Assembly: GCA_038063195.1 (NCBI GenBank)
Contig: JBBTVO010000011.1
Span: 1-62,050, forward strand
Length of the DNA stretch: 62,050 nt
Direction of reading: 5' to 3'
Origin: Patescibacteria group bacterium
GTDB lineage: Bacteria > Patescibacteriota > Microgenomatia > Levybacterales > UBA12049
A program made the position numbers and the translations under genes. This document shows positions 25,661 through 42,394 of the stretch, piece after piece. The first letter of the stretch is position 1. The number at the start of each line of letters is the position of its first letter. The notes below the pieces were generated by a model. The model was not told the DNA's origin and did not search any database. It saw only the letters and a program-made list of their open reading frames with translations.

Positions 25661-26098
25661 ATGAAATTTGAATTCTCAGCAGGCGGTGTTGTTTTTCGAA
25701 AAGCCCATTCGGCAAGCTCAGGGCAAGAAGAAATTTTTATTTTGGTTGCTCAGCATTCCCAGCATCATGGTTGGGTTTTTCCAAAAGGATGGATTGAAAA
25801 GAGTGAAACCAAAGAAGATGCTGCTCTAAGGGAAGTTAAGGAAGAGACAGGCATCATCGGGAGGATCACAAAACCTTTACAACCCGTCACATACTGGTAT
25901 GATCTTGAACGAGTAAAAATAAAAAAGACTGTTTATTATTTTCTGATGGAATTTGCCGGAGGAAATACTGAGGAACATGACGATGAGATGGAAAACGTAG
26001 AATGGATGCCCAAAAAAGAAGTTTTGGAAAAATTAACATATAAATCAGATAAGGAGGTTTGGGTTCAGGCAGAAAGAATATTAGCAACTAGCCACTAG
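25661..26098 (+). CDS. NUDIX hydrolase
   Basis: Nudix box GWVFPKGWIEKSETKEDAALREVKEETG. The ATG at 25661 is used because the upstream ORF extension only translates the tRNA genes. Confidence 0.85.
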   Translation: MKFEFSAGGVVFRKAHSASSGQEEIFILVAQHSQHHGWVFPKGWIEKSETKEDAALREVKEETGIIGRITKPLQPVTYWYDLERVKIKKTVYYFLMEFAGGNTEEHDDEMENVEWMPKKEVLEKLTYKSDKEVWVQAERILATSH

Positions 26099-26110
26099 TT
26101 ACTAGTCGCT
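26081..26110. repeat. CTAG-rich repeat (contains ACTAGCCACTAG)
   Basis: ttagcaactagccactagttactagtcgct. Supplies the last codons and stop of the NUDIX gene. Inverted copy at 26933-26962. Confidence 0.8.
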
Positions 26111-26120
26111 GTTTTACTTG

Positions 26121-26207
26121 CGGTGGGACCGGGATTCGAACCCGGGATAATCTTACGACCATACACGCTTTCCAAGCGTGCTCCTTAAACCACTCGGACA
26201 CCCCACC
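26121..26207 (-). tRNA. tRNA-Ser(GGA)
   Basis: Minus strand GGTGGGG...CACGC-TTGGAAA-GCGTG, long variable arm, CCGGG-TTCGAAT-CCCGG-TCCCACC-G. Confidence 0.85.
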
Positions 26208-26218
26208 CGTTTCCCGAT

Positions 26219-26593
26219 TTAAATTACTTTAATATCGTATTTTTTGATTTTCCTATCGTCTGTAAGAAGCGTAAGCCCTTCGGCTTTTGCCTGAGCAATA
26301 AGCATTCTGTCAAACGGATCATTGTGATAAATAGGAAGTTTTCCTAAATTTAGAACATGAGAAAGATTTATGGATAATAATTCAAAACCAGAAAAAGACA
26401 CCATTTCCGTTATTGTAGTTTTTAAAGGTAACTTTCCTGCAGTATTTTTAATGCTTATTTCCCAAAGAGTAGCAATGCTGACATAGATATGGCTATTTGG
26501 ATCTTTTAATATTTTCTGCGTTGACTTGTTGAGCTTCTTATCTTCGCTTAACCACCAAATAAAAATATGAGTATCTACCAGATAACTTTCCAT
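26219..26593 (-). CDS. vapC: type II toxin VapC (PIN domain)
   Basis: 124 aa. YLVDTHIFIWW N-terminus and the spacing of acidic residues are typical of PIN toxins. Follows the antitoxin gene. Confidence 0.8.
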   Translation of the reverse strand: MESYLVDTHIFIWWLSEDKKLNKSTQKILKDPNSHIYVSIATLWEISIKNTAGKLPLKTTITEMVSFSGFELLSINLSHVLNLGKLPIYHNDPFDRMLIAQAKAEGLTLLTDDRKIKKYDIKVI

Positions 26594-26601
26594 ATCTTAG
26601 G

Positions 26602-26835
26602 TTATTTACCATAAAACATTTTGTTTATTTCGGGATCTTCGTCTGTAAAGTTATCCGGCATAAAAATTTTCCCCTTCAAAAGCCCTGGCTTGCGGGGCTT
26701 TAATGGCTTCTTGTAGCCGATCAATTTCGCGACAGGTTTCCCTGCCTTTGCAATTATTACATTCTCGCCAGCAGCCACCTGCTCAATGAGTTTTGACAGA
26801 TTTGTTTTTGCCTGATGAATATTTATTATCTGCAT
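26602..26835 (-). CDS. Phd/YefM-type antitoxin
   Basis: 77 aa. MQIINIHQAKTNLSKLIEQVAAGENVIIAKAGKPVAKL is typical of the prevent-host-death family. Confidence 0.8.
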   Translation of the reverse strand: MQIINIHQAKTNLSKLIEQVAAGENVIIAKAGKPVAKLIGYKKPLKPRKPGLLKGKIFMPDNFTDEDPEINKMFYGK

Positions 26836-26932
26836 AAATTATTTAATTAGCTAACTTAGCTAAGTATAATAAAAAACTTATTTTATGTCAACATTGCCGA
26901 TCAAAAAATTAAAAAATACGACATTTCAACAA

Positions 26933-26962
26933 TCTAGCTAACTAATCGCTAGTGGCTAGTCT
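26933..26962. repeat. CTAG-rich repeat, inverted copy (contains CTAGTGGCTAGT)
   Basis: tctagctaactaatcgctagtggctagtct. The 14-mer tcgctagtggctagt recurs at 32197-32210. Confidence 0.8.
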
Positions 26963-27009
26963 CTAAATTCCTTGACAAGGTCTTGAAAATATATCAGACT
27001 AAGGTAGGA

Positions 27010-28706: not shown

Positions 28707-31688
28707 TTATTTTCTACCAGCAGCTCCCTTTGCTCCTGATATTTCATACGCCTCTGAGAATAGAGCTGTAAGTAAAAAGATAAAGAAAGACATTCCTCTT
28801 CTGGCTGACTGTGGAAGAAGCCCAAGCTGAAGTTTTTTCTCAAGTCCTTTCCAGAGCGTCGGATCGCCATTCATTAGAGTGTTTATTTCATCCGCCTTTG
28901 CTCTTGCAGTATCGCGGCTTATAGGCGTTGCTTGTGGACCAAAAATTCTTTCAATTTTTGATATAGGTCTTCTGAATATTCCTTTTGATATACCCAGGCT
29001 GTCTGACATTAGATCCTGAAGAGAAGCTATAAGAAATGTGCCTCTGGTGAACCTTATACACTTTGCTCTCCCAGGTTCTCCATTATACTGGCTTACTGCA
29101 TCACCAAAAGCTCTTGCTGCTTTGTCATTTTCCTCATCGTGCTCGACATTCTTCATAAATCCAACAAGACTCTGTCCTGCTTTCATTCCGTTTGCGGTAT
29201 CATTCCAGATTCTTACATAGGCATCTCCGCCCTTATCTGTCCCAAACATCTTTGAAAGCGGCACTATTCCTCTTTCTTTTTCCTCATCGCTTACCAACTC
29301 AAGCCTATCAAGCAATGCATCGTCAACGGTTAAAGTACGGTTATAAATATCCTCAAATTTAGTACTAGTCATAAGCTGATCAATCATTTTGTTATCCGTT
29401 ATATACTTTTGCATTGCTGCAAATATCCCTACTGCATCACTTACCGCTTCTTCACTACCCATTATCTTGAGAAAAGATGCTTTTTGTTCGTCAGTTAGAG
29501 TTGCTAAGTTAATTTGTTCAGGGGCCCACTTTTTCTTCCCAGCCGGGTTGCCTTCATCATCCAATACATCTATCTCTTTTCTAAAATATTCTTCCCTTAG
29601 CATTCTTATCGCCGCTCCGTATTTGTCTTTAAACTTGGTATATGCAGTGATCTTCCCCATATCAGGATGCTCTTCATCATTTTTGTTTATCAAACGGTTA
29701 TGTTCTTTTTCTTCGTCTGTAAGCCTCAGGTAGTCATCCACACCTTCAAGTTGTGCGTAAAGACCTTCCAGTTGGCCATTGTCTCTTTCTTTAAAAAGCC
29801 TTATTATTTCTTCCGGCCGATAGCCAGCTATTTTGTCCCATATTTGCGCCCTTGCTCTAACTCTTTCCCTACCTTCACCAATTCTAGGATCTTTAAGTCT
29901 TAAAAATAGCCCAAAATCCTGTGCATTTTCAAATCTGCTTTCTATTGACTTAAGTATTCCTTGTACCCTCCAGCTAGATGAGAAAAAGTCAGGAACAAGG
30001 AAAAGATCTCTAAAGAGCCTCGTCCCAAGCTCAATCTTATCCTCTCTGCTCATAGACCAGGTGCTTTTCCCTCTTGTTTTAAGATCTTCATCTGCCATGT
30101 CTATTTTCGTCTCATCTAAATACTTTCGTTCATCTTCAGTGTAGAGTCCGAATTTTGCTGTAAGAAGATCCTCAAGGTTATAGACATTAAGAGGCCCCCC
30201 CACAGCATCTGAAAAGTAAGCATCTGCGCCTTGCAAATGTTTTCCTCTTGCAGTAATAACTGCCTGACGCTGGGACGAAACGAAGACATCATAAGCTGTG
30301 CCTATTGCTCTTTTTATCTCTCCTTCCATCTCTGCCTGATTTTTTTCAGCGCTGAAGAAAATTCCAATCCCTCTTCCCGCCATATCTATCTGCTCTTTAA
30401 TTAGTTTATCCTGCAGCTTTGCTTGCATCTCAGGTGTTACATGGTTTCTCTCAGCCTTAAGTCTCTCGTTCTCAAGTAGCTCGTCAAATCTGTTAAACAT
30501 TGCCCCTACCTTCCCATCCTCAAAGCTCATACCTGTAAATAGTCCATGAACCTGAAGATTATAAGATTCCTGCTGTATTTGCTCTATGCTTCTATAACCT
30601 ATAGCTGATCGCATTTTTAATAAGTTAAGTCTGATTATTTGTAGTTTTTCAAATTCCTGTAAGCTTTTATTAAGCCTATCTGCTTCACCGGTATTACCTG
30701 TATCAGCTTCTACTGCCGCCTTTTCTTTAAGAATTCTCATAGCCTCACTTGCCTGTTGCAAAATACTGTTTACAATAGGTGAGTCAAATGCCTGTCCTTC
30801 GGCGGCGATACGGTATATAACGTCAAACTGACTATTCAACCAGGCTATTGGGTCTCTAGCGATAGCCTCTATTGCAGGCTGGCTTATGTAAAGACTGCTC
30901 GTTTCCCTTCTTCTCTCTTCCATGGCAGTTCTTTCATCAGCTCTAGTATTTGCTATCTTCTCATTTATTTTCTGCAATAGCATATCTCGATCAGCTTCTT
31001 GTCCTAGTGTAACTGTCATTGCTGCTACCTGATCGTGGATATCCGTGAGCCTATCTGAGGATACACCAAGACTTGCAAGATTATTATTGTATCGCTCGCC
31101 AATAGCCTGTATTCCTGCGTCTCCGATACCACTGATATCTATGGCGGACGGGCGTGGTCCTCCCGCAGCCATAGTCCCGGGGCCCATACTAAGCGGCTCT
31201 GGTTGTAAATGGCTGTTTGTTGCTCTCAGGATTAGTTTCCCAATATCCGCTCCTCTGTCTTGGAGCTCTGCTAACATTCCCCACCCTACCTGCTGGGCTT
31301 CAGAAGCAATACCTTCTCTCTCAAAACCTTCTGCATGTCCCATTGCTAGGCGTTGTCTCTCAGTAAGTAATTTTACGTAGGCGTCTTCAAGGTCAGCATC
31401 TGACCATTTATTAAGAGGGTTAATTTCTAACTTAGCTTTTAAATCTGCTGCGAATTCTTTAAGAATCGGGGTTTTTATATTCTCAAGGTCTGGTGATGCC
31501 CATTTTGGAGACTCGATAGGTGGCGTTTCCTGAATACTAGAACTTTTTATAGGTGGTCTCTCTGACTTACCTTGATCCATGAAAATATTTCCTCTTACAT
31601 CAAGTGTAGGAACAACCGGCGGGGTTGTCAAATCCGCCGAAGGCGAGACAGGCTTATTAAATTGTGCTCGAACTTCAAATTCTTTCAT
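28707..31688 (-). CDS. 993-aa tail-anchored protein of unknown function
   Basis: Long uninterrupted ORF. Pro-rich N-terminus, largely helical/charged body, single C-terminal TM helix (MSFFIFLLTALFSEAY). No NTPase or relaxase motifs seen. Confidence 0.7.
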   Translation of the reverse strand: MKEFEVRAQFNKPVSPSADLTTPPVVPTLDVRGNIFMDQGKSERPPIKSSSIQETPPIESPKWASPDLENIKTPILKEFAADLKAKLEINPLNKWSDADLEDAYVKLLTERQRLAMGHAEGFEREGIASEAQQVGWGMLAELQDRGADIGKLILRATNSHLQPEPLSMGPGTMAAGGPRPSAIDISGIGDAGIQAIGERYNNNLASLGVSSDRLTDIHDQVAAMTVTLGQEADRDMLLQKINEKIANTRADERTAMEERRRETSSLYISQPAIEAIARDPIAWLNSQFDVIYRIAAEGQAFDSPIVNSILQQASEAMRILKEKAAVEADTGNTGEADRLNKSLQEFEKLQIIRLNLLKMRSAIGYRSIEQIQQESYNLQVHGLFTGMSFEDGKVGAMFNRFDELLENERLKAERNHVTPEMQAKLQDKLIKEQIDMAGRGIGIFFSAEKNQAEMEGEIKRAIGTAYDVFVSSQRQAVITARGKHLQGADAYFSDAVGGPLNVYNLEDLLTAKFGLYTEDERKYLDETKIDMADEDLKTRGKSTWSMSREDKIELGTRLFRDLFLVPDFFSSSWRVQGILKSIESRFENAQDFGLFLRLKDPRIGEGRERVRARAQIWDKIAGYRPEEIIRLFKERDNGQLEGLYAQLEGVDDYLRLTDEEKEHNRLINKNDEEHPDMGKITAYTKFKDKYGAAIRMLREEYFRKEIDVLDDEGNPAGKKKWAPEQINLATLTDEQKASFLKIMGSEEAVSDAVGIFAAMQKYITDNKMIDQLMTSTKFEDIYNRTLTVDDALLDRLELVSDEEKERGIVPLSKMFGTDKGGDAYVRIWNDTANGMKAGQSLVGFMKNVEHDEENDKAARAFGDAVSQYNGEPGRAKCIRFTRGTFLIASLQDLMSDSLGISKGIFRRPISKIERIFGPQATPISRDTARAKADEINTLMNGDPTLWKGLEKKLQLGLLPQSARRGMSFFIFLLTALFSEAYEISGAKGAAGRK

Positions 31689-31772
31689 GCGCTGAGTGTA
31701 TAGGAAGAGCAGGCGGAGTACTTGACGTTTACATTACAGCTTCCTGACGATATACTTACAATAGAATTAAAC

Positions 31773-31817
31773 AGCAACTAGCAGGCTAGCAATTAGCCAC
31801 TAGTTATTAGGCACTAG
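31773..31817. repeat. CTAG-rich repeat upstream of a four-helix-bundle gene
   Basis: agcaactagcaggctagcaattagccactagttattaggcactag. Confidence 0.75.
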
Positions 31818-31821
31818 AATT

Positions 31822-32202
31822 ATGAAAATAACATCCTACAGAGAGCTGATTGTATGGCAGAAATCAATGGATTTAGCAACTTTAATATTTAACATAACTA
31901 AGTCTTTCCCTGCTTCTGAGCAGTATGGACTTACAAATCAAATAAGAAGGGCTTGTTTTTCAATCCCATCAAACATAGCAGAGGGATTTTGTAGAGGCGG
32001 TAGGCCAGAATTCAGACAATTCCTGCAAATCGCATTTGCATCCGGAGCAGAGCTTGAAACAGAACTGGAAATAGCTAAAAACATTGGAATATTACAAGAT
32101 AAAGATTATAAAATTTTAATTTCAAAGCTTGATGAAATCATGCGAATGCTGAATAAAATGATCAGAACTGTTAGAGATAATCAGAAACAATCTAGTCGCT
32201 AG
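31822..32202 (+). CDS. four-helix-bundle protein (23S rRNA intervening-sequence protein family)
   Basis: YRELIVWQKSMDLATLIF...FPASEQYGLTNQIRRACFSIPSNIAEG is the family signature. Confidence 0.85.
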   Translation: MKITSYRELIVWQKSMDLATLIFNITKSFPASEQYGLTNQIRRACFSIPSNIAEGFCRGGRPEFRQFLQIAFASGAELETELEIAKNIGILQDKDYKILISKLDEIMRMLNKMIRTVRDNQKQSSR

Positions 32203-32221
32203 TGGCTAGTTGCTAATCGCT
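32191..32221. repeat. CTAG-rich repeat downstream of the four-helix-bundle gene (inverted relative to 31773-31817)
   Basis: tctagtcgctagtggctagttgctaatcgct contains CTAGTGGCTAGT, the reverse complement of ACTAGCCACTAG. Confidence 0.8.
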
Positions 32222-33604
32222 ATGGAAGCTACACATTTCGAATCTCTATATCCAGCACAGTCCCGCTTTGACGAGATTGAGAAAATACTTAAATTTGCCA
32301 GAGAAGGGAAATCTTCTCAGCTTGTGGGGCTTCCCGGAGTAGGTAGGTCAAATACTCTTGGGCTTTTAAGCTACAACAAGAATATAAGAAAGAAACATTT
32401 GGGCGAAAATCAGAAATGGTTTCATTTTGTCTCCTGCGATTTTTCAGAAATCCGCAAGAAGCCTGTCTCTGATGCGATGAAATTTATATTCCTGCGCCTT
32501 GCTGATTCGCTTCGCGAAAGAAAAATATTAAAAAACGCAGAATCTGAATTCGCAGGAGAAGGCTCTTTTGAGCAGATTGATAAAATTTTTAAAGAATCTG
32601 CCGCGACAAATGACGAGATGGTTCTTTTTCAGGGTCTCAAGCGCGCAATAGACTTCCTTTGTATTGAAAAAGAGCTGACAATTGTATTCTTGTTCGACAG
32701 ATTTGAAGAATATATTCCAATGCTTACTCCCGAGTTTTTTGCAAACTTAAGGGTCTTGAGAAACCGCGCAAAGTACAGATTCTCAGTAGTATTTTCTCTT
32801 AATAGACCCCTTGAAGAACTTATCGAGCCCATACTTTTTGCCGATTTCTATGAATTTCTTGCAGATAATATTGTCTATCTTCCTATTTTGGATAAACCCG
32901 GCTTAGATTTCAGGATTTCTTATCTCGAAAAAGTGACAATGAAACAATTGAACAATGAAACAATTGAACAAGTCCTTTTACTAACCGGCGGACACGGGAA
33001 GCTTACAAGACTCAGTCTGGAAACAATATTAGCAACTAGCGACTGGCCACTAGCAACTAGTGAAAAACTGCAAGAGTTTCTGTTGGAGCAAAAAAGCGTA
33101 AAAGCAAGTCTATACGAGATATGGATATCGCTAATTCCGGAGGAACAATTACTGCTAGCGTCTAGAGAAAAGCGTTTAGCGTTTAGTTTTTCAGGTAGTT
33201 CCTACTTAGAGAAAATTGGACTTCTTAAAAATGAAGTAATAACTATTCCCCTTTTTGAAGAATTTATCTCAACCCTACTTCGTCAAGACTCCGGAAGGGC
33301 ACAGCAAATATCTTTTGATCAGAACACAAATGAGATCAAAATGGGCGAAACAGCTCTGTCTGATTCTTTAACTTCATCTGAATTCAAGCTTCTTAAATTT
33401 CTTCTTGATAATCCAGACAAACTAATCGAACGGGAAGAAATAATTAAGGCCGTATGGAAAGATGAAAAGACCACAGAAGGAGTCACAGACCAGGCACTTG
33501 ACCAGCTTATATTCCGCCTTCGCAAAAAAATTGAAGTTGATCCAAATAATCCTGTCCACCTCCAAACCTTAAAAGGCAAGGGGATAAGGTTTAGCAATCG
33601 CTAG
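32222..33604 (+). CDS. P-loop NTPase-like domain fused to an OmpR/PhoB-type winged-helix DNA-binding domain
   Basis: Walker-A-like GLPGVGRSN (Arg where Lys is expected), Walker-B-like IVFLFDRFEE. C-terminal LTSSEFKLLKFLLDNPDKLIEREEIIKAVW...ALDQLIFRLRKKIE...LQTLKGKGIRF matches trans_reg_C. The ATG at 32222 is preferred over the TTG at 32210. Confidence 0.75.
   Translation: MEATHFESLYPAQSRFDEIEKILKFAREGKSSQLVGLPGVGRSNTLGLLSYNKNIRKKHLGENQKWFHFVSCDFSEIRKKPVSDAMKFIFLRLADSLRERKILKNAESEFAGEGSFEQIDKIFKESAATNDEMVLFQGLKRAIDFLCIEKELTIVFLFDRFEEYIPMLTPEFFANLRVLRNRAKYRFSVVFSLNRPLEELIEPILFADFYEFLADNIVYLPILDKPGLDFRISYLEKVTMKQLNNETIEQVLLLTGGHGKLTRLSLETILATSDWPLATSEKLQEFLLEQKSVKASLYEIWISLIPEEQLLLASREKRLAFSFSGSSYLEKIGLLKNEVITIPLFEEFISTLLRQDSGRAQQISFDQNTNEIKMGETALSDSLTSSEFKLLKFLLDNPDKLIEREEIIKAVWKDEKTTEGVTDQALDQLIFRLRKKIEVDPNNPVHLQTLKGKGIRFSNR
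33029..33062. repeat. CTAG-rich repeat embedded in-frame in the NTPase-wHTH gene
   Basis: ttagcaactagcgactggccactagcaactagtg encodes LATSDWPLATS. Same word family as 26081-26110. Confidence 0.75.
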
Positions 33605-33714
33605 ACTTTTAAATTTTCAATTTTTAATTTTAATTGAAAACTTCAAATTTTAAATTTCAAATTAAATTCCGTCGCCTATTGACGTAGGACGACCAATAAG
33701 TATACGATAATTGT

Positions 33715-34980
33715 GTGAGAAAGTTTCTGCTCTTCATTCTTTCTTTTTATATATTCCTCTCTTTTTTCTATACAAAAACTTTCGCAAGCTATACTGTAAA
33801 GGCTGATCCTCCAGTGACATCTGCTAATCCATTTAACGGACAACCTACCCACAAATCTGCATTGCAAATATTTAAAGACTTAAGTCTTTCAGCTCAATCC
33901 CCTATTATTACCGAGAACACAAACACAGTCACAATTAACTTCGAAAACCTTGGACAAAATAAAGAATATGTAGTTTGGGCAGGAAAAGAGGATTTCCTTG
34001 GCAAATATTCTTCTTCGGCAGACAGAAAGCTAGATTTTGCAGTCTGTGGCTGGGGAAGTATACTTAAATTAGCTGACAAAGACAATCCTGGTACAGGAAA
34101 ATGTGCAGATGATGATTATTTCCACGCTGGAACTTATACTCTTCAAATATGTACTGACGAGGAATGTAATAACGTTGTGGAGTCTGTACCCCTTTCTGTG
34201 GCTCGTTACTATCCTGATTTTATAATTAGCGAGAAAGATCCTGTTACAGTAACTTTAATTGGATTAAGAAAACGAAACGACGACGGAGGACGAAATAATT
34301 ACTCAATAGAAATCTCCCGTATGTCAGACCTTGGTAAAGAAATTGAAGAACACTGCACCACAGTTAAGCCTGACGGAACCAATGATCCCCCAGTTACTTT
34401 CAAATCTCTTGAGCCTGGCAATTATGAACTTAGAATTAATGAAAGGCAGAAGGAGGGGAATTCATTTACCCGCGCATTTGGCAGTGATTGTAATACTGGT
34501 TTTACTTATTACTCTGTCCGGCTGTTTGTTGGATTAGATGGAGCAATAAAGGTAGAAGAGGTTATCGCTGATCCATATGGTCAGGATGTCGGAGGACAAG
34601 AGCGAAAAGATTATAAAGCTCCGAATGCGCCATGCGAAGTAGATCAGAAAACCGGAAAAGGAAAGTGTCCTACCGGTCTTGGTATATCTATAAATACAAG
34701 CCCAGGTGGCTTCGTCAGGTCTGTATTTGGGCTTATCTTAAGTATCGCAGGCGGAATTGCGCTTCTTCTTATAATATACTCCGGATATCAGCTAATTACA
34801 TCTCAAGGCACTCCTGAAAAGCTTGAAGCAGCCAGACAGCAGCTTGTTTCAGCAATTGTCGGACTCTTGTTTATAATTTTCGCACTGGTTATTCTTCAGG
34901 TAATAGGGGTAGATATTTTGCAAATTCCTGGTTTTGAACCAAGCACTACGTCTCATTCCCAAAAATCAGCGGCACCTTAA
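33715..34980 (+). CDS. secreted protein with large N-terminal domain fused to a C-terminal VirB2/TrbC-like T4SS pilin module
   Basis: GTG start. Signal peptide ...FFYTKTFA. The C-terminal ~90 aa (LILSIAGGIALLLIIYSGYQLITSQGTPEKLEAARQQLVSAIVGLLFIIFALVILQ) is paralogous to the three small pilins downstream. Confidence 0.7.
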   Translation: MRKFLLFILSFYIFLSFFYTKTFASYTVKADPPVTSANPFNGQPTHKSALQIFKDLSLSAQSPIITENTNTVTINFENLGQNKEYVVWAGKEDFLGKYSSSADRKLDFAVCGWGSILKLADKDNPGTGKCADDDYFHAGTYTLQICTDEECNNVVESVPLSVARYYPDFIISEKDPVTVTLIGLRKRNDDGGRNNYSIEISRMSDLGKEIEEHCTTVKPDGTNDPPVTFKSLEPGNYELRINERQKEGNSFTRAFGSDCNTGFTYYSVRLFVGLDGAIKVEEVIADPYGQDVGGQERKDYKAPNAPCEVDQKTGKGKCPTGLGISINTSPGGFVRSVFGLILSIAGGIALLLIIYSGYQLITSQGTPEKLEAARQQLVSAIVGLLFIIFALVILQVIGVDILQIPGFEPSTTSHSQKSAAP

Positions 34981-34983
34981 ATT

Positions 34984-35310
34984 ATGATTGTAAAAAATGT
35001 TGATTATTTAGCACTTAAACTAGGGGACACAGAAATTGGTGCGCCGGGAGGAATCCCAACTGGGGGTACAGGCACAGGTCAAAAAATAATCCAAACAGGA
35101 ATAACACTTTTGTTTATATTTGCCATCATTCTTGCCCTTTTCTATATCGTGCAGGGTGGAATTCAGTGGATAGTATCAGGCGGAGATAAACAGCAGATAG
35201 ATCAGGCAAGACTGAGAATTACATATGCAATAGTAGGTCTTGTTATAGTTCTTGCCGGGTTTTTCATAGTAAATCTAGTTTCCGGAATTTTCAAGATAAA
35301 TTTTTTCTAG
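34984..35310 (+). CDS. VirB2/TrbC-like T4SS pilin paralogue
   Basis: 108 aa. Two TM helices flanking a conserved WIVSGGDKQQIDQAR loop. Confidence 0.7.
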   Translation: MIVKNVDYLALKLGDTEIGAPGGIPTGGTGTGQKIIQTGITLLFIFAIILALFYIVQGGIQWIVSGGDKQQIDQARLRITYAIVGLVIVLAGFFIVNLVSGIFKINFF

Positions 35311-35361
35311 CAAAAGTAGCTCTTGACAAAGTAAAAAATTCATAATAGCATTAACTTAAGC

Positions 35362-35790
35362 ATGAAGAAATTTATTCCAGCCATTGCCCTCTCAACATAT
35401 CTTCTAACTCCCGCTGTTGCTTTTGCTCAAACGAGTGTATCAACATGCCCGCCTGGTCAATTTAATGTCCTTTGTGGTTTTACAGCTAGCAGCTTTGGAA
35501 GCGTAGTAAGTACTCTTGTCAGTGTACTTTTTGTAATTGCAGTAGTAATTGCATTGGTATTCTTAATCTGGGGAGGTATAAAATGGATTCTCTCAGGCGG
35601 AGATAAAAGTGCTGTTGAGAGCGCAAGGAATACTATAGTTGCGGCAGTAGTCGGATTGATAATAGTCTTCCTGTCTTACTTTATATTGAATATCGTTCTC
35701 GGATTCTTTGATATTAAGCTTGCAGACCTTAAGATTCCCAAAATAAACCCGGCTGCACCAATTGAAACGCCTGAAACGCCTTCTTTGTAA
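35362..35790 (+). CDS. VirB2/TrbC-like T4SS pilin paralogue
   Basis: 142 aa. Signal peptide ...PAVAFA, then two TM helices flanking WILSGGDKSAVESAR. Confidence 0.7.
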   Translation: MKKFIPAIALSTYLLTPAVAFAQTSVSTCPPGQFNVLCGFTASSFGSVVSTLVSVLFVIAVVIALVFLIWGGIKWILSGGDKSAVESARNTIVAAVVGLIIVFLSYFILNIVLGFFDIKLADLKIPKINPAAPIETPETPSL

Positions 35791-35837
35791 TCTCTTCTAG
35801 TCTTGCCTTTTTTTTCCTTCCCTGCTAATCTAGTTAT

Positions 35838-36149
35838 ATGCCATGGACAGACTGTCTTTCCCCAGAAGGGGTAGCAACCCTTAACTGCATCCCTATTGTT
35901 TTTAGTAACATCGTTAATTGGGCGCTTATACTATCAGGTACGACTGCTTTGTTCTTCGTAATAATCTCGGGCACGAGATACATAAGGTCCGGAGGAGATC
36001 AGGAGAAAATTAAAGGCGCAAGGGAGACTCTGACTTATGCAATAATAGGGTTGGTTATTATCCTACTTTCGTTCGGCATAATAAATTTCATAAGCTATGT
36101 TACAAACGTCGAATGTATAAAGCAATTTGGTTTTGGAAACTGCACATGA
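35838..36149 (+). CDS. VirB2/TrbC-like T4SS pilin paralogue
   Basis: 103 aa. Two TM helices flanking YIRSGGDQEKIKGAR. Confidence 0.7.
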   Translation: MPWTDCLSPEGVATLNCIPIVFSNIVNWALILSGTTALFFVIISGTRYIRSGGDQEKIKGARETLTYAIIGLVIILLSFGIINFISYVTNVECIKQFGFGNCT

Positions 36150-36153
36150 AGCA

Positions 36154-36350
36154 GATACTAGATACTAGTTGTTAGATATTAGCATTTAGTTAATAATTTC
36201 CAGACTATTATCTAGTATCTATTACCTATTAACTGTCAGGTTTTCACAGCCAGCTTCAATTCTCAGAAATTTTGACACATTTTGATTATCTTGCATTGAT
36301 ATTTTTCACATAGTTAAATAGATAATAGATACTAGTTACTAGATATTAGT
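36154..36350. repeat. TAG/ACTAG-rich repeat blocks upstream of the second four-helix-bundle gene
   Basis: gatactagatactagttgttagatattagc...tctagtatctattacc... and tagataatagatactagttactagatattagt. The terminal 14-mer tactagatattagt is inverted at 36722-36735. Confidence 0.75.
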
Positions 36351-36358
36351 AAATACAA

Positions 36359-36733
36359 ATGGCAAGTATTAAATCATACAAGGACTTAATTGTATGGCAA
36401 AAATCTATGATTTTAGTAAAAGAGGTTTTTGCTCTAACAGCAAGATTTCCAAAATCTGAACTATATGGAATTATTTCTCAAATCAGAAGATCCGCTATAA
36501 GTATTCCATCCAATATCGCCGAAGCGTTTGGCCGAAGATCTGTTAGGTCAACTGCTCAATTTTATTCAATTGCACTCGGCTCAGCGCTGGAGCTTGAAAC
36601 GCAGCTTCTGATATCACGTGACCTTAAGATGGCGGATTTGCAATATTTTAAACCAAGCGATGACTTATTATTGGAAGTTTGCAAAATGTTGAATTCAATG
36701 ACTGGGAAATTAAAGTTCTCAACTAATATCTAG
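36359..36733 (+). CDS. four-helix-bundle protein (23S rRNA intervening-sequence protein family)
   Basis: YKDLIVWQKSMILVKEVF...FPKSELYGIISQIRRSAISIPSNIAEA. Paralogue of 31822-32202. Confidence 0.85.
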   Translation: MASIKSYKDLIVWQKSMILVKEVFALTARFPKSELYGIISQIRRSAISIPSNIAEAFGRRSVRSTAQFYSIALGSALELETQLLISRDLKMADLQYFKPSDDLLLEVCKMLNSMTGKLKFSTNI

Positions 36734-36750
36734 TATCTAATTACTAATAA
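36722..36750. repeat. inverted copy of the ACTAGATATTAGT repeat, overlapping the stop of the four-helix-bundle gene
   Basis: actaatatctagtatctaattactaataa. Its reverse complement ends ...gatactagatattagt. Confidence 0.75.
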
Positions 36751-36756
36751 CTATTT

Positions 36757-37956
36757 ATGGAAAATCATCCAATACCTCAGGACATTACTGGCTTTCAATT
36801 TAAGCTGATTGGAGATATGACAATCAAACAATTTGCTTATCTTGCTGCGGGCATAATACTTGGCTGGATTACTTATATCCTGCCCATATTTATAATTATA
36901 AAAATCCCGATACTTGTTACTTTTGTAGGACTTGGTGTTGCGGCCGCATTTTTGCCAATTGAAGGAAGACCATTTGATGTAATGATAGGGAATTATTTTA
37001 AGGCGCTCTTGAGCCCTACTCAATATATATACCAAAAAATCGGGGGACATATCTGGTTCCCGGATACACCTATTCAGAATCAGAAAGCTGCCCAAAGTAT
37101 TGCTCCAAGCGATAATGCCGAGTCCTCGAGAAAGCTTAAGGAGTTCTTAAAATCATTACCCCAGAAGCCCAAAAATAAGCTGGATGAAAAGGAAATGAAT
37201 TTCTTAAATTCCCTGGGATTCTCTCCTACTGCTGTCTCAGTTCCAGTTGTAAATTCCGGAAACAGTGCATATGAAAAAATTATATCCCATCATGACCCGA
37301 TAATTCCTCTGCAGATACATCCTGAAGAAAAAAAAGAGCCTGATAAGAATCCTGAGCCAAAACTTAATCACGACGAAACACAACCCGGGAAAGAACCCGA
37401 AAAAGCAAAACTGCCTGAAAAAGTTCAGGAAAGTCTTCCTCAGTATAGTATCGCCCAACAGGAACTACTTTCTCAAAAACAAAACCTTGAAAATCAGGTT
37501 CTTGAGCTAAGAAATAAAATGAGTGCGCAAAACCAAAATATTACCACATCGGACGCTTCAGCTGTAAAACAGGAGAGCCAGACGGTAAGAACAATACCAA
37601 GAAACATGGGAAAAACAGCAGGACTTCCCTTCATGTCTGACGTGCCAAATCTCATAATGGGTATTATTAAAGGGCCGCGGGAAAATCCTCTTTCAAATAT
37701 TCTGGTGGAGGTAAAAGACACAAGCGGCAATCCCGTAAGAGCCTTTAAGACCAATGCTCTTGGCCAATTTTCCTCAGCGACCCCGCTTGGAAACGGAACA
37801 TATACGATATCGTTTGAAGATCCCAAAAGCGAAAATAAATTCGATATAATCGAGATAAAAGCCAATGGAGACGTGCTTATGCCGCTTGAAGTCATTTCCC
37901 TTGACCAAAGAGAAGAATTAAGAAGGTCACTATTTAATCCGGCACAAAAATCATGA
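36757..37956 (+). CDS. PrgI-like (VirB3-analogue) membrane protein with C-terminal carboxypeptidase-regulatory-like beta-sandwich
   Basis: N-terminus IPQDITGFQFKLIGDMTIKQFAYLAAGIILGWITY plus a second TM helix resembles the PrgI family of Gram-positive T4SS. C-terminal ILVEVKDTSGNPVRAFKTNALGQFSS...GTYTISFED. Confidence 0.6.
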   Translation: MENHPIPQDITGFQFKLIGDMTIKQFAYLAAGIILGWITYILPIFIIIKIPILVTFVGLGVAAAFLPIEGRPFDVMIGNYFKALLSPTQYIYQKIGGHIWFPDTPIQNQKAAQSIAPSDNAESSRKLKEFLKSLPQKPKNKLDEKEMNFLNSLGFSPTAVSVPVVNSGNSAYEKIISHHDPIIPLQIHPEEKKEPDKNPEPKLNHDETQPGKEPEKAKLPEKVQESLPQYSIAQQELLSQKQNLENQVLELRNKMSAQNQNITTSDASAVKQESQTVRTIPRNMGKTAGLPFMSDVPNLIMGIIKGPRENPLSNILVEVKDTSGNPVRAFKTNALGQFSSATPLGNGTYTISFEDPKSENKFDIIEIKANGDVLMPLEVISLDQREELRRSLFNPAQKS

Positions 37957-38618
37957 GTAAAACTGCCCAAAAGAAAAATTCAACCACTCAGAAATTTATA
38001 GAAATCGACCACATCGAAGAAGATATTGCACTTCTGTCCGGAAAGCACGCCTGTCTTATAATAGAAGTGAATGCGACTAACTTCGCGCTTTTGTCCAAAG
38101 AAGAACAGGATACCAAAATATTTTCCTATGCTTCGCTTCTCAACTCCCTCTCCTTTCCCATACAGATTTTCATAAGAAGCAAGAAGCTTGATATATCTGC
38201 TTATCTTAAGCTTCTTGAGGCTCAGGCCTCTCAATCACAAAACCACCTCCTTTCATCCCAGATACGTCTTTATAGAGACTTTATTAAAGAGCTTGTTAAA
38301 GTAAATACGGTTCTTGATAAAAAATTCTACATTGTCCTTTCTCACTCATCTCTTGAAAGAGGCGTTCATAATGCAAAAGCTACAGAGAAAAAGAATATTC
38401 CTGCAGATTCTTTCGCTTCAACTGCAAAGACAACGCTTCATTCAAAAGCAGAATCAGTTCTCTCCCAGCTCGCAAGATTGAACCTGCGGGCCAAAACACT
38501 TCAGAAGGAAGAGCTAATAAAGCTTTATTACGAAATTTATAATGGCAGTACTGTTGAGACCAATCAAATATCTGATGATATAAGTACGCCAATAGTCAGA
38601 GGAGGAAATCAGGCATGA
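37953..38618 (+). CDS. T4SS-associated protein resembling a VirB4 N-terminal domain (no ATPase motifs)
   Basis: 221 aa. FIEIDHIEEDIALLSGKHACLIIEVNATNFALLSKEEQ...SLSFPIQIFIRS pattern. Translationally coupled on both sides (ATGA overlaps). Confidence 0.5.
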   Translation: MSKTAQKKNSTTQKFIEIDHIEEDIALLSGKHACLIIEVNATNFALLSKEEQDTKIFSYASLLNSLSFPIQIFIRSKKLDISAYLKLLEAQASQSQNHLLSSQIRLYRDFIKELVKVNTVLDKKFYIVLSHSSLERGVHNAKATEKKNIPADSFASTAKTTLHSKAESVLSQLARLNLRAKTLQKEELIKLYYEIYNGSTVETNQISDDISTPIVRGGNQA

Positions 38619-40618
38619 GTCTTTTTGGGAACAAGAAACAGCCGCAGGAAATAAAAAATCCGACCGTAACTTACCCTGCTCAGCAGCCGGCTCCAAAACC
38701 TGCGGCAATAAATTCTCAGCCACAGCCGCAGCCGCCTGCAAAATCACTTCCGGGAATTGAGAAGCTTGAAAAAGGAATATCATCATTAAATGATATTATT
38801 GCCCCATCATCTATTGAAGTGGACTTTAATTTTATAAGAGTCGGGGATCATTACTACAAGACATTTTTTATAATTGGTTACCCCCGGTTCGTCTCTCCAA
38901 ACTGGCTATCGCCCCTTATTGATTTTGACCATTCAATGAATATCTCAATGTTTTGCTATCCTGCTTCATCAAACGACGTCTTATCAGATTTAAGACGGAA
39001 AATTGCCGAGATGGAAGCAACTCTATCTTCTCAGGCAGAAGAAGGAAAAATCACAGACCCGAAAGTTCAGGCTGCGCTTGAGGACGCGCTTTCTCTTCAG
39101 GAACAGCTAGCAAAAGGAGTCGAGAGATTTTTCCAGTTCGGGCTTTATATAACTCTTTTTTCGGAAAACCTCCAGGATCTTGAGGACTCGGCAAGGAGAT
39201 TAACATCAACGCTCTCCTCAATCCTTCTGATACCCAAGATGACAACGCTTCAGATGGAAGACGGTTTCAAGTCCACAATTCCTGCGGGGCTTGACAGGCT
39301 TTATATAACAAGGAACATGGACACTACATCTCTTGCCTCAACTTTTCCGTTTACCTCAGCAACTCTTACTCAGGACAAAGGCATAATGTACGGAATAAAT
39401 GAGCAGAATGGCTCACTAATAGTCTTTGACAGATTTTCTCTCGAGAATGCCAATGAAATCGTATTGGGAAAATCAGGAGCAGGAAAGTCATATCTTATTA
39501 AACTTGAGGCTCTTAGGCAATTTATGTTTGGCACTGAAGTCATAATAATAGACCCCGAAGGTGAATATGAAGCTCTTTCAAAAACTCTGGGCGGTGAACA
39601 CGTATCATTTACCCCTTCTGACCCTATAAAAATAAATCCATTTGATCTTTCAGGGCTTTATGAAGAAGGAGAAAATGAGCTGGGGCTTAAAATCCTTTCT
39701 CTGCATGGACTCTTGCGGATAGTTATGGGAGAGCTTGGGGCTGCGGAAGATGCGATACTTGACCGCGCGCTGGTTGAAACATATCGGCAAAAAGGAATTA
39801 CAGCAGAGCCGTCAACGCAGAAAAATCAGCCTCCTCTTATGGAAGACTTATATAAGGTTTTGCTTGGAACTGAGGATGCGACGGCAAGAGGCCTGGCCTT
39901 GCGGCTTGAGAAGTTTATTAAAGGAAGCTTAAACGGAATATTCAATCAGCAGTCAAATTTTGATATAACTAATCCATTTACGGTTTTTTCAATAAAGGCG
40001 CTTGAGGAGGAACTGCGGCCAATTGCGATGCATATAATCCTTGACTTCGTCTGGACGAGAGTAAGAAAGAGTCTCAAGAAAAGATTATTAATTTTGGATG
40101 AGGCATGGTATATTATGAAATACGAAGATTCCGCAAGCTTTGTGTATGGAATTGCCAAGCGGGCAAGAAAATACTACCTTGCCCTAACTACGGCAACGCA
40201 GGATGTGCAGGATTTCCTGTCCACCGACTACGGAAAAGCAGTCCTTTCAAACTCATCAATTCAGATGCTTCTTAAGCAAAGTCCCACTGAAGTCGACTTG
40301 ATAAGTAAGGAGTTTTATCTCTCAGAAGGAGAGCGTGAGCTCTTGCTTTCTGCTGATGTTGGAGAAGGACTCTTCTTCGCAGGCCAAAGTCATGTAGTAA
40401 TAAAAGTTATCGCAGCGCCATTTGAGCATACAATTATAACATCTAATCCTCAAGAAATTTTAAAACAGAGAGAAGATGCAGGACAAGCAGGCGAGGCGCC
40501 TACTCAGCCTCAAGCTCCGGTCTCAGCTATTGAACAGATTTCAAAAGAGCCGGCACCCCAAAGCCCTCCAAGTCAACCGCAAGATTCAGCTACACCTCCT
40601 GCGTCTGGCGGGTCGTAG
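38615..40618 (+). CDS. virB4: VirB4/TraC-like T4SS ATPase
   Basis: 667 aa. Walker A GKSGAGKSY, Walker B LLILDEAW. The N-terminal domain pattern (IRVGDHYYKTFFIIGYPRFVSPNWLSPLI) is typical of VirB4 homologues. Pro/Gln-rich termini. Confidence 0.85.
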   Translation: MSLFGNKKQPQEIKNPTVTYPAQQPAPKPAAINSQPQPQPPAKSLPGIEKLEKGISSLNDIIAPSSIEVDFNFIRVGDHYYKTFFIIGYPRFVSPNWLSPLIDFDHSMNISMFCYPASSNDVLSDLRRKIAEMEATLSSQAEEGKITDPKVQAALEDALSLQEQLAKGVERFFQFGLYITLFSENLQDLEDSARRLTSTLSSILLIPKMTTLQMEDGFKSTIPAGLDRLYITRNMDTTSLASTFPFTSATLTQDKGIMYGINEQNGSLIVFDRFSLENANEIVLGKSGAGKSYLIKLEALRQFMFGTEVIIIDPEGEYEALSKTLGGEHVSFTPSDPIKINPFDLSGLYEEGENELGLKILSLHGLLRIVMGELGAAEDAILDRALVETYRQKGITAEPSTQKNQPPLMEDLYKVLLGTEDATARGLALRLEKFIKGSLNGIFNQQSNFDITNPFTVFSIKALEEELRPIAMHIILDFVWTRVRKSLKKRLLILDEAWYIMKYEDSASFVYGIAKRARKYYLALTTATQDVQDFLSTDYGKAVLSNSSIQMLLKQSPTEVDLISKEFYLSEGERELLLSADVGEGLFFAGQSHVVIKVIAAPFEHTIITSNPQEILKQREDAGQAGEAPTQPQAPVSAIEQISKEPAPQSPPSQPQDSATPPASGGS

Positions 40619-40636
40619 TTTAATTATTATTAATTT

Positions 40637-41887
40637 ATGGCACAAAATAATCAAGAAAATGGGCTTGATGATGCTAGAAGACTAGGAGCTGCTTTGCTCC
40701 AGAATGCAGCAAGAAGCGCTGTAAGCGGTTTTGCGGTACCTATTGCAATAGTAATTGCAGTTATTTTGATCGTAACTTTTATTATTCTGCTTGGCGGAGG
40801 CGGTGGGGCAACCCCCGGCCTTGCCAACAACAACACTCCTCCAGTGGGAGACAATCCCGGAAGCCCCCCTGTACCAGCTGGCCCCAATCTAAATTACACA
40901 ATTAAATTCAGGGATACAACTGTCGTTCCTGTAAAAAGCACATCTATCGATGCAATAAAACAGCAATTTCCGAAAGCACAAGTTCAGTATTACGATATAA
41001 TCGTGGATCGCGCAATACAAGCAGGCTGGAATCCAGCTTTTGTTCTTACTCTCTGGATAGAAGAAACAGGCGCTTCCCAGAACACAAAAATAGCCGCAGG
41101 CGGAGCCGGAGTTTTACCAGCGTCTAATGGACACCTTGGGTGCGCTCCATGGGAATTACAGACTATAAACGAAAGTCTTGATTGTCTTTTCAAGAATTTC
41201 TCGGGATATTCAAATGATCAGTTTGAGAAGTTTATGAGGACATATTCAGGAGAGAGCTCCGATTCTGGTCCTTTCGTAAACAACCCAAATTTCCCCGGGA
41301 ATGTTTTGAAATTTTATTCAATGCTCGTCCCTTCAGGCCCAGGAGCCGCAACGGGAACAGGCGGGACGACAGCCGGAATTCAAGTTTCCTGTCCCATCAA
41401 TAAAACCAACAACACCGCTTATTTTACCTGTGGTACAGCTACGAATCCGCGAAATGGCTGCGGACATGGTGTCCCACCTGTATATCCACCGTGCACGCAA
41501 CCACCATACGCATTCTGCCCTTTCTCCGAACAGCTTAAGAATTCTGTAGACATTCAGTTGTCACCCGGAAATGGATCAAATCTACCCGTTTATCTTCCGA
41601 CTATCAACGGGGCATCGCAGCAATGGACGTTTACGGGAGGCACATATATTGACAGCGGTAACGCTTCAAAACAGGCATATGAAACTAATTCTGGAGGACA
41701 TAATATAATCGCAGTATTTACGCATCTCAACCAACGAACTCCTCTTGCAGGAAGTAGGGCAACTTACTCTTCGGGAACAAAGGTTGGCACGACTTTTGCC
41801 GGAAAAAACCACCTTCATGCAGAAATCGTAATTGATGGAATCCCAACAGACCCAATAACTGGAGTTTCAATGTGTACGGGAAGTTAG
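40637..41887 (+). CDS. membrane-anchored putative cell-wall hydrolase (VirB1-like role) with C-terminal M23-peptidase-like motif
   Basis: N-terminal TM helix, Gly/Pro linker, central region AIQAGWNPAFVLTLWIEETG, C-terminal GKNHLHAEIVIDGIPTDP resembling the HLHxE motif of M23 peptidases. Confidence 0.5.
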   Translation: MAQNNQENGLDDARRLGAALLQNAARSAVSGFAVPIAIVIAVILIVTFIILLGGGGGATPGLANNNTPPVGDNPGSPPVPAGPNLNYTIKFRDTTVVPVKSTSIDAIKQQFPKAQVQYYDIIVDRAIQAGWNPAFVLTLWIEETGASQNTKIAAGGAGVLPASNGHLGCAPWELQTINESLDCLFKNFSGYSNDQFEKFMRTYSGESSDSGPFVNNPNFPGNVLKFYSMLVPSGPGAATGTGGTTAGIQVSCPINKTNNTAYFTCGTATNPRNGCGHGVPPVYPPCTQPPYAFCPFSEQLKNSVDIQLSPGNGSNLPVYLPTINGASQQWTFTGGTYIDSGNASKQAYETNSGGHNIIAVFTHLNQRTPLAGSRATYSSGTKVGTTFAGKNHLHAEIVIDGIPTDPITGVSMCTGS

Positions 41888-41902
41888 ATATACTTATAGA
41901 CA

Positions 41903-42394
41903 ATGAGCAGAATTATTAATTATCGTTTTTTACTTCTAGCTTTTTTTGCCCTACTTTTCTTAGGATTAATAACAATAATCTTCTTAAGTATAACAAAAAA
42001 GCCAAAGCAGGTGGAAACATATCCATCCGATCTTTCAAGCGAAGACATAAGAAGAATTACACCAATTGATTCTCAAGATAAAAGAAAACCGTTAAGAATC
42101 TTGGCTGAAACAAAATCAGAAGCCAATTTTGGGATTCAAAAAGCATTTGTGGTACATTTTTCTGAAAAACCTTCGCCTTTTTACTTTTCTTATTCAATTA
42201 CGCCTAATGCAACTATAAGTGCAACTATCGATGAGAACAATATGGTTCTTATGCCCATCCCGCGCTGGGAATCAGAAACAGAATACAAGCTGACTGTAAA
42301 TAAAGATACAAGAGACGTATACGGCAATCTATTGGATAGGAATTACGAATTCAGGTTTACAACTATTCGCGATGAAATCTATGAAATCTATTGA
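41903..42394 (+). CDS. membrane-anchored Ig-like (SbsA/Big-type) domain protein
   Basis: 163 aa. TM helix then a single beta-sandwich-like domain ending YEFRFTT. Confidence 0.5.
   Translation: MSRIINYRFLLLAFFALLFLGLITIIFLSITKKPKQVETYPSDLSSEDIRRITPIDSQDKRKPLRILAETKSEANFGIQKAFVVHFSEKPSPFYFSYSITPNATISATIDENNMVLMPIPRWESETEYKLTVNKDTRDVYGNLLDRNYEFRFTTIRDEIYEIY

Follow-up and report, generated by a model that had tools for sequence, protein, structure and literature searches.

A PF05635 gene with heptamer arms between the promoter and the start codon of a PrgI-like gene in a Patescibacteria group bacterium

Why does a small gene framed by inverted repeats lie directly in front of the start codon of a secretion gene? 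The question is raised by contig JBBTVO010000011.1 (assembly GCA_038063195.1) of a Patescibacteria group bacterium (GTDB lineage Patescibacteriota; Microgenomatia; Levybacterales; UBA12049). Positions 1 to 62,050 of this contig were analysed and are referred to as the window. The small gene encodes a protein of 124 amino acids of family PF05635 and lies upstream of a PrgI-like gene in a type IV secretion system (T4SS) locus. Tandem units of about 7 nt flank it on both sides as inverted arms. A preliminary description of the window had regarded gene and repeats as a cassette and argued for a general repeat-bounded mobility or recombination mechanism. The explanation favored here, with a probability of roughly 0.6, is a cassette of the intervening sequence (IVS) type located outside rRNA, carrying its own heptamer arms and inserted between the -10 box and the ATG of PrgI. 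At this site cassettes have arrived, given way to other subtypes, passed between lineages and decayed by internal deletion.

The PrgI leader and its occupants

PrgI homologues were present in 55 of 61 related genomes. PrgI homologues and their upstream DNA were compared across 29 related genomes, and metagenome contigs supplied 80 further PrgI loci, some of which are the same sequence from different samples. About 100 orthologous PrgI loci were compared in all, with open reading frames (ORFs) in the relatives called mechanically. The features of the window at this locus are as follows.

35838-36149, plus strand: third T4SS-pilin gene, left neighbor of the cassette (PF18895 T4SS_pilin, E 1.1e-10)
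36153-36234, plus strand: hairpin without a gene, built from the 7-nt words of the cassette arms (its own arms at 36153-36182 and 36204-36234)
36236-36319, plus strand: conserved PrgI promoter region (TTTTCAC boxes 36241-36247 and 36303-36309; TTGACA 36272-36277; -35 TTGCAT 36291-36296; -10 TTAAAT 36314-36319)
36315-36350, plus strand: left arm of tandem 7-nt units, beginning at and overlapping the -10 box
36359-36733, plus strand: four-helix-bundle gene, 124 amino acids, PF05635 / S23p / Avd-like (PF05635 profile match)
36722-36757, plus strand: right arm, holding the cassette stop codon and constituting the entire PrgI 5' leader
36757-37956, plus strand: PrgI-like gene, the host gene with the occupied leader (PF12666 PrgI, E 4.1e-8)

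The motif TTGAC..TTTGATnATCTTGCA..ATTTTTCAC..TAnnnT was found upstream of PrgI in 27 of the 29 genomes and in nearly all metagenome loci, with or without a cassette. In fuller form it reads TTGAC..TTTGATnATCTTGCAn5ATTTTTCACnnnnTAnnnT. Its consensus and its fixed spacing to the ATG suggest a promoter, with a putative -35 box TTGCAt followed after 17 nt by a putative -10 box TAcgcT. The best plus strand promoter of a scan (TTCACA-17-GATACT) was set aside, as only TTGCAT-17-TTAAAT is conserved in genomes with an empty site. The preliminary description had named as a refutation the case that 36154-36350 is an ordinary promoter region conserved in genomes lacking the gene. Such conservation was found for 36236-36319 only, and gene and arms still form a discrete unit.

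The distance from TTTTCAC to the ATG separates the states of the site. It was 16-29 nt (mode 17) in 17 of the 29 genomes, and in these empty sites the ATG lies about 7 nt past the -10 box. Six genomes had 40-75 nt, usually with a small hairpin. In the five genomes with a PF05635 gene between promoter and PrgI ATG, this one included, the distance was 447-515 nt where the contig shows the span; it was 431-578 nt wherever a PF05635 gene was present in genomes and metagenome loci together. The contig of G001, a genome of the same genus, is broken off within a right arm. The cassette is an insertion reaching from the -10 box to the PrgI ATG; in the empty genomes these two stand about 7 nt apart. 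The same spacing makes the PrgI transcript most likely leaderless in the empty genomes. Across the order the promoter architecture is conserved as two TTTTCAC boxes about 55 nt apart plus the TTGAC..TTTGATnATCTTGCA block, a layout which suggests a leaderless PrgI mRNA and a regulator that may bind TTTTCAC.

About 74 of the metagenome loci were classed. Twenty-three were empty (16-29 nt), 23 had short leaders (31-90 nt), 18 held PF05635 cassettes and 10 had other content. By protein, the PF05635 cassettes at the site fall into five or more clusters, and every cluster has arm words of its own (G numbers are genomes and L numbers are loci).

Cluster A1: arm words GATACTAG; the type of this genome
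Cluster A2: arm words TATAGCG; L106, L109, L121
Cluster B: arm words AATGGCTAAATAG; G009, G033
Cluster C: arm words CGAAnnn; G020
Cluster D: arm words AAATCT-like; L107, L115, L131, L172

L169 was a further singleton cluster. In the four loci of subtype D no separate left arm was visible and the ORF begins right after the promoter. The subtype D ORF has a low-complexity N-terminal extension, for example LELKVKNLNQKSKNPNLK, which may be an in-frame reading of the left heptamer array. The idea that the arms serve to provide stop codons in all six frames does not hold generally, because the arms of subtype C (CGAAnnn) are without stops.

Reduced forms were also present. In loci L111, L112 and L114 an internal deletion has left an A-type cassette of only 180 nt, which retains the left arm, the first 15 codons (MIKSYKDLVVWQKSM), the last ~25 codons out of frame (LLLEVCKMLNSMTGKL...TSI*) and the right arm. 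Several of the short leaders are bare heptamer hairpins, such as L142 (AGTAATAGGTACTAattacTAGTACTTATTACT), and L125 is a 98-nt hairpin with A2-type arms; both of these consist of arms only, with no gene. Other genes occupy the same position. L132 has a small gene of the GIY-YIG family (PF01541, E 6.5e-13) within the frame CACGTTAGAGACA/TGTCTCTAACGTG, with L130 as its deleted form, and L167 has a PD-(D/E)XK "GxxExxY" gene (PDDEXK_3, PF13366, E 7.5e-32) between the PrgI promoter and the ATG. Among the occupants other than PF05635 an inverted-repeat frame was read for the GIY-YIG cassette only. One site accepts three unrelated families of small cassette, and it shows the full series of empty, filled, swapped, deleted and bare hairpin states.

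Further cassettes lie nearby in some relatives. Immediately behind PrgI, G026 carries another PF05635 cassette, whose arms are of the AAATATT type (L022 1730-2102; G026:C4:1755-2057), and its protein is 71% identical to the C15 copy of the genome studied here. G009, G033 and G020 have two to three cassettes each within the same T4SS locus. The locus is a cassette hot spot, since these four genomes hold several cassettes there.

The gene, its arms and their inheritance

The cassette ORF matched PF05635 ("23S-rRNA-IVS protein") over the full length of the profile (1-106/106; E 6.3e-35, 120 bits, cut-off 33.8). To our knowledge this family was discovered in 23S rRNA intervening sequences in 1993 and its function has been unknown since. 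It is a very large family, with at least 7,785 relatives counted at E <= 1e-10 among 8,000 candidates. Residues 7-90 of the protein matched PDB entry 2gsc_A (XCC0516; E 1.3e-18), a solved pentameric four-helix bundle with five chains; the pentamer is that of the solved relative, to which the 124-amino-acid cassette protein is related in sequence only. The motif (G)xxRxxxSxxxNxxE has been noted as conserved in XCC0516 homologues (PMC3936711), and R-x3-S-x3-N-x2-E is readable in QIRRSAISIPSNIAEAF of the cassette protein with the leading G absent. Compared to 87%-identical orthologues at L073 and L074, the ratio of nonsynonymous to synonymous substitution rates (dN/dS) was 0.08-0.09 at a dS of 0.7-0.8. 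The protein is therefore under strong purifying selection. Its identity to the protein of another cassette in the window, which was described first, is 46%, in agreement with the earlier statement that neither is a recent duplicate.

The genome comprises 0.91 Mb in a 96% complete assembly and contains nine PF05635 genes, most of which have the start codon of the next gene within a few nt downstream. At the present locus the cassette ORF lies between 35838-36149 and 36757-37956 and splits the pilin genes from the PrgI-like gene, as had been described. Three T4SS pilin genes are on its left. The PrgI-family gene is on its right and is followed by VirB4-like genes. An Rfam scan of 35800-37000 gave no rRNA or other relevant match and one chance miRNA match (E 0.25). 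No intrinsic terminator was found in a terminator consensus scan of 36100-36800.

The inverted repeat reported previously was confirmed as a perfect 14-nt match between tactagatattagt (36337-36350) and actaatatctagta (36722-36735). It extends to 36 nt at 83% complementarity (36315-36350 / 36722-36757). The TAG stop codon of the cassette (36731-36733) is inside the right arm, again as reported, and the last nucleotide of that arm is the A of the PrgI ATG (36757). What had been missed is that the arms are tandem arrays of ~7-nt units (AGATAAT AGATACT AGTTACT AGATATT). The left array ends 8 nt upstream of the cassette ATG. Strict period-7 [CT]TA[GA] arrays numbered 59 in the 0.91-Mb genome compared to 8-15 in shuffles. 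A flank-to-flank inverted-repeat score was computed alike for this ORF and for 380 control ORFs of the same genomes. This ORF scored 21, while the controls had a median of 7 and never exceeded 12, with their 95th percentile at 9.5. The 40 PF05635 genes of six related genomes had a median of 14.5 and 26 of them exceeded the control maximum, as did seven of the nine in this genome (the exceptions are on C14 and C7). The inverted repeat of the cassette is far beyond chance.

Gene and arms were inherited together. The paralogues of this genome on C3 and C4 are 87% identical in amino acid sequence, and the sites they occupy are unrelated. The two resemble each other precisely from the left arm's outer end, including the TAA stop of the upstream gene, as far as the outer end of the right arm. 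Across 630 cassette pairs, those with at least 60% protein identity at different sites shared 0.20 of their arm 7-mers compared to a background of 0.04 in unrelated pairs, with little sharing below about 65% protein identity. Gene plus arms is the unit of inheritance, and the arms belong to the gene and not to the site. A comparison of protein clade with repeat type had been proposed as a check in the preliminary description; the two co-vary, both in these shared 7-mers and in the subtype-specific arm words at the PrgI site.

The cassettes have also turned over at the PrgI site. On the PrgI tree, a single-gene tree, the filled state needs at least three changes. This genome (subtype A) is sister to G033 (subtype B) with support of 97/85. 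G026, which is subtype A with a 70% identical protein and the same arm words, is sister to an empty genome. Among twelve A-type loci the identities of PrgI and of the cassette protein were uncorrelated (rho 0.11), and vertical inheritance of subtype A with losses only was rejected on this ground. For example, this genome and L106 are 65% identical in PrgI and 58% in the cassette protein, compared to 51 and 70%, respectively, for this genome and G026.

Locus L072 showed a near-identical cassette in a different background. Only one difference was found in 36278-36788 (511 nt); the cassettes are 99.8% identical and their proteins one residue apart. The promoter spacer just upstream of 36278 differs at 6 of its 28 nt, PrgI differs by 12% over the first 390 nt past 36788, and the flanks have diverged by 10-25% on both sides. 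The two ends of the identity block fall within the promoter core and within the first 30 nt of PrgI, stretches that are conserved in all lineages. Because the near-identical cassette sits in 10-25% diverged flanks, exchange by homologous recombination via the promoter core and the PrgI 5' end is indicated, and no other transfer route has direct evidence behind it. In the same comparison the three pilin genes (34984-36149) were 72-80% identical at the nucleotide level (80% for the third) and the 3' half of PrgI was 97-99% identical. The pilin genes appear to evolve or to be exchanged much faster than their surroundings.

The two arms are under different constraint. The left arm is shorter by 7 or 14 nt, which are whole units, in L074 and L073. 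The region 36720-36765, comprising the right arm and leader, was identical in all four orthologous loci, while the ORF differs by 16% in nucleotides at a dS of 0.7-0.8; within it the right arm was identical at 35 of 35 positions. Compensatory changes were sought among the four orthologues and none were countable, the right arm being invariant. Since it is invariant while the left arm loses units, the right arm has a sequence-level function of its own. In this genome at least eight ordinary genes that lack a Shine-Dalgarno (SD) sequence are preceded by the word family of the right arm (CTAGTATCTAATATCTA...TAACTA), which stops 4-10 nt short of their ATG. Arms of this family thus occur gene-less directly before the start codons of ordinary genes, and the repeats are not cassette-specific. 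The invariance and the occurrence of the same words before other ATGs suggest that the right arm acts as the PrgI translation leader. Further arrays in this genome precede T-runs and resemble terminators.

The preliminary description had also pointed to a block of about 80 nt of the same words at 36154-36230. This block is real and spans 36153-36234. Positions 36153-36182 are 90% identical to the left arm, and 36195-36234 are 78% identical to the right arm with the last ORF codons included. The two halves are inverted over 17 nt at 94% and form a predicted hairpin of -26.7 kcal/mol (z -3.68), the unit number of which varies among relatives. It is probably the relic of a decayed cassette, since it fits the end of the series of empty, filled, swapped, deleted and bare hairpin states at the PrgI site. 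It is also possible that it serves as the 3' hairpin of the pilin transcript.

Explanations for the cassette

If the cassette is an IVS-type insertion, the host PrgI promoter would transcribe the cassette gene with the left arm as its leader. The right arm would have been turned into a new SD-less translation leader for PrgI, which would account for its invariance. The arms pair in both the minimum free energy and the centroid folds of 36312-36770 (z -3.6), and an RNase III gene is encoded in this genome. By analogy to ORF-bearing 23S rRNA IVSs, the arms of the transcript might pair into a long imperfect stem and be cut by RNase III. Such a cut would separate the cassette mRNA from a short-leadered PrgI mRNA. 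Spread between lineages at the site could proceed by ordinary homologous recombination, with the promoter core and the PrgI 5' end as homology arms.

A number of observations weigh against this explanation. Among 25 distinct armed cassettes the sense-strand arm mismatches comprised 32 G-U and 31 A-C pairs, and the majority (95) were transversions; with the first two kinds equally frequent, nothing points to selection on an RNA stem. Unit losses and base changes in the left arm are uncompensated in the invariant right arm, so that the long stem is not strictly kept, and L073 would keep only about 14-20 imperfect pairs. The block shared with L072 could be any recent recombination tract, as parts of PrgI further downstream are also 97-99% identical. 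The tree behind the count of changes is that of one gene, whose locus is itself subject to recombination. Neither an enzyme nor a movement event was seen, and there was no target-site duplication at the C3/C4 boundaries or at the junctions between filled and empty sites.

The last of these points bears equally on the mechanism proposed in the preliminary description, in which the arms are the sites of a dedicated integron- or transposon-like recombination system. One part of that proposal was borne out, as a discrete unit of gene plus arms has been gained, lost, replaced and moved. Filled, empty and swapped states at one site and unit boundaries that coincide with the arm ends are what such a system would produce. 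The sharing of one spot by PF05635, GIY-YIG PF01541 and PDDEXK_3 PF13366 genes would suit it as well, two of these being nucleases that could make the break. The machinery is what failed to appear. No recombinase or transposase lies in or beside the cassette, and none was found among the ORFs of 30000-42000; an integrase elsewhere in the genome was not searched for. The arms differ between cassettes, and no core sequence is common to those of the nine cassettes of the genome or of the subtypes at the PrgI site. The mosaic identity ends in conserved host flanks and not at the arm ends, and a reverse transcriptase (RT) is absent from most cassette-rich genomes of the order. Site-specific recombination at the arms is accordingly considered improbable. 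It is even less probable that the locus is ordinary operon furniture, with native terminator or leader hairpins around a resident small gene and neither a cassette nor mobility. Heptamer arrays do occur genome-wide before start codons or T-runs, flanking mreB and prfA among others, and the right arm behaves as a conserved leader. Yet control ORFs were almost never flanked by complementary sequence, the arms vary with the gene subtype although the site is otherwise constant, empty sites place the ATG 7 nt after the -10 box, and the C3/C4 unit was duplicated together with its arms.

The alternative given most weight, though still an unlikely one, is a cognate protein-repeat system. The four-helix-bundle protein would bind the 7-nt arrays around its own gene and the gene-less arrays with words of that family elsewhere in the genome, and would be a regulator or a maintenance or mobility factor. 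The arms are more conserved than the nucleotide sequence of the ORF, with the conserved part being a periodic core and the spacers variable, and arm words co-vary with protein subtype at one fixed site. An array comprises 3-5 units, and five chains are present in 2gsc, the relative of solved structure. The Ssn/NTS pair provides a precedent (PMC11893778). Gene and arrays also go together between genomes. In 61 genomes of the order the PF05635 copy number correlated with the 4-unit period-7 array load (rho 0.70), and at least 10 arrays were present in 38 of the 46 genomes with PF05635 compared to 4 of the 15 without, although these genomes are related and not independent. Within family f1 (36 genomes) TATCTA-type arrays numbered 9 in this genome (G000), 19 in G026, 1 in G001 and 0 in the others, and so are practically confined to G000 and G026, the two genomes with an orthologue of this gene, a pattern that was noticed post hoc. 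G037 likewise pairs TATCTA arrays with a PF05635 gene having such arms.

If the gene-less arrays are decayed cassettes, the same co-variation and co-occurrence would be expected just as much. Such decay was observed, and the reduction of cassettes to hairpins accounts for gene and arrays occurring together. A strict one-to-one link between TATCTA arrays and a PF05635 gene with matching arms fails in G050, which has 15 TATCTA matches and no such gene, and four genomes have arrays and no PF05635. Within the family a nucleic-acid-binding assay exists for Avd only. A stronger form of the cognate system is similarly doubtful. In it each PF05635 subtype recognizes its own heptamer word, maybe with one unit per subunit of a pentameric ring, and gene plus arms form an autonomous element whose deleted hairpins populate leaders and terminators. 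If true, this would be an undescribed selfish protein/repeat system and would explain 23S rRNA IVSs along with the intergenic heptamer arrays of Xanthomonas, Nostoc, Beggiatoa and Geobacter.

Heptamer arrays were seen in other settings in the window and its relatives. A 464-amino-acid ATPase/Trans_reg_C gene includes, at 33029-33062, a CTAGCAA-type array that forms part of its reading frame (LATSDWPLATSE) and complements the right arm of the first cassette (inverted-repeat score 17). At 26081-26966 a PIN-type toxin-like ORF of 124 amino acids and an antitoxin-like ORF of 77 amino acids (minus strand) adjoin a probable tRNA and are bracketed by inverted CTAGCCA-type arrays, so genes other than PF05635 can also lie between heptamer arrays. 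Long perfect (TAACTAA)n arrays were found at contig ends (G000 C22:19116-19161 and C40:4-70), and the end of G001:C42 (L012) breaks in a right arm. Heptamer arrays appear to break assemblies, and cassette counts in draft genomes are for this reason lower bounds.

It is scarcely credible that the cassette protein is the Avd accessory protein of a diversity-generating retroelement (DGR). The suggestion arises from a weak bAvd-like match (PF22296, E 0.0014, below the cut-off) and from the single DGR-type RT of the genome. That sole RT is on contig C13 and has an Avd-like ORF of its own, and no RT, template repeat or variable repeat is present at the cassette locus. RT was found in 15 of 61 related genomes compared to PF05635 in 46 of 61, and it is absent in the cassette-rich genomes G010, G009, G020 and G037. 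A retro-mobility or DGR role was rejected, with RT missing from most cassette-rich relatives. Contig C13 itself (L040 1-3612) encodes a 293-amino-acid RT (PF00078, E 4.6e-22), the Avd-like ORF of 115 amino acids on the opposite strand and two copies of a C-terminal segment (…DGSWLRALWVKPTRQWSLEDRFVFSPRK / …DGSWLNANWVKPTNQWNLENRFVFSPRK). It looks like a diversity-generating retroelement, in which the two segment copies would be the variable and template repeats.

Comparison with known systems

The likeness to integron cassettes and to MITEs (miniature inverted-repeat transposable elements) lies in a small promoter-less gene, imperfect inverted repeats, exchange behind a resident promoter and gene-less derivatives. 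Unlike these, the present element has no integrase, attC core sites, transposase or target-site duplication, and it is a single cassette and not an array. Integron cassette and transposon/MITE were both rejected, there being no common arm core, no recombinase in 30000-42000, no target duplication and no ORF other than PF05635. Ssn, a small GIY-YIG ssDNA nuclease with its NTS/SRM repeats (PMC11893778), and the REP/RAYT systems are similar in having a small gene flanked on both sides by a hairpin-forming dispersed repeat and, with G050 as an exception among genomes that are not independent, in co-occurrence at the genome level. PF05635 is without a nuclease fold or motif and its repeat words differ per gene subtype.

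Intergenic heptamer arrays are known as GGGAATC in Xanthomonas and GGGGAYT in Nostoc, with convergent pairs (PMC4692102), as the TAACTGA repeats of Beggiatoaceae, Flexibacter and cyanobacteria, which end beside start codons without a ribosome binding site (RBS) (PMC4679880), and as 4-5x heptanucleotide elements in Geobacter metallireducens (PMC2700814). They resemble the arrays described here in having 3-5 units of 7 nt between genes, often as inverted hairpin-forming pairs. Many end right before start codons lacking an RBS, and they have stops in all frames. Those papers name no gene family, whereas here the arrays bracket PF05635 and gene-less ones can be traced to deleted cassettes. PF05635-type genes have been noted wedged in cas operons (PMC3936711). 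A literature search found no paper linking PF05635 genes outside rRNA to flanking heptamer arrays.

The closest known system is the ORF-bearing 23S rRNA IVS of Coxiella burnetii and Leptospira. In both cases an S23p / PF05635 gene occupies the loop of a stem formed by terminal inverted repeats, and tandem heptamers of variable unit number are immediately upstream of the ORF. The Coxiella burnetii 23S IVS, in helix 45, has a 28-bp terminal stem, with heptamers in tandem ahead of the S23p ATG, and is cut by RNase III at the first of them (PMC4990558). Its heptamer unit number varies between strains, and it has been proposed to be selfish or once mobile (PMC4990558, Warrier et al. 2016). The cassette differs in lying in the leader of a protein gene directly behind the promoter and not in a 23S rRNA helix. 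Its stem is 83% complementary over 36 nt compared to 28 bp with one mismatch and one bulge in Coxiella. Its protein is under purifying selection while the Coxiella copy is decaying, and its right arm would double as a translation leader for the host gene. Excision by RNase III is known for the rRNA element and would apply to the cassette by analogy, judged from the sequence. Although every architectural feature is common to both, the cassette is not an IVS in the strict sense because the rRNA location does not apply.

Sampled about 100 times, the PrgI site is a natural experiment that displays the whole life cycle of the element. New here are the filled, empty, swapped and decayed series at one site across several genera, the evidence for exchange through conserved flanks, the likely conversion of PrgI from leaderless to leadered and the asymmetric constraint on the two arms. 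This suggests that a selfish insertion can turn a leaderless gene into a leadered one, with the new leader then strongly selected. As the site also accepts GIY-YIG and PD-(D/E)XK mini-cassettes, the findings point to a general class of hairpin-framed small-gene cassettes in genomes of the candidate phyla radiation (CPR). The locus links three puzzles that were published separately, namely ORF-bearing IVSs, intergenic heptamer arrays and SD-less repeat leaders.

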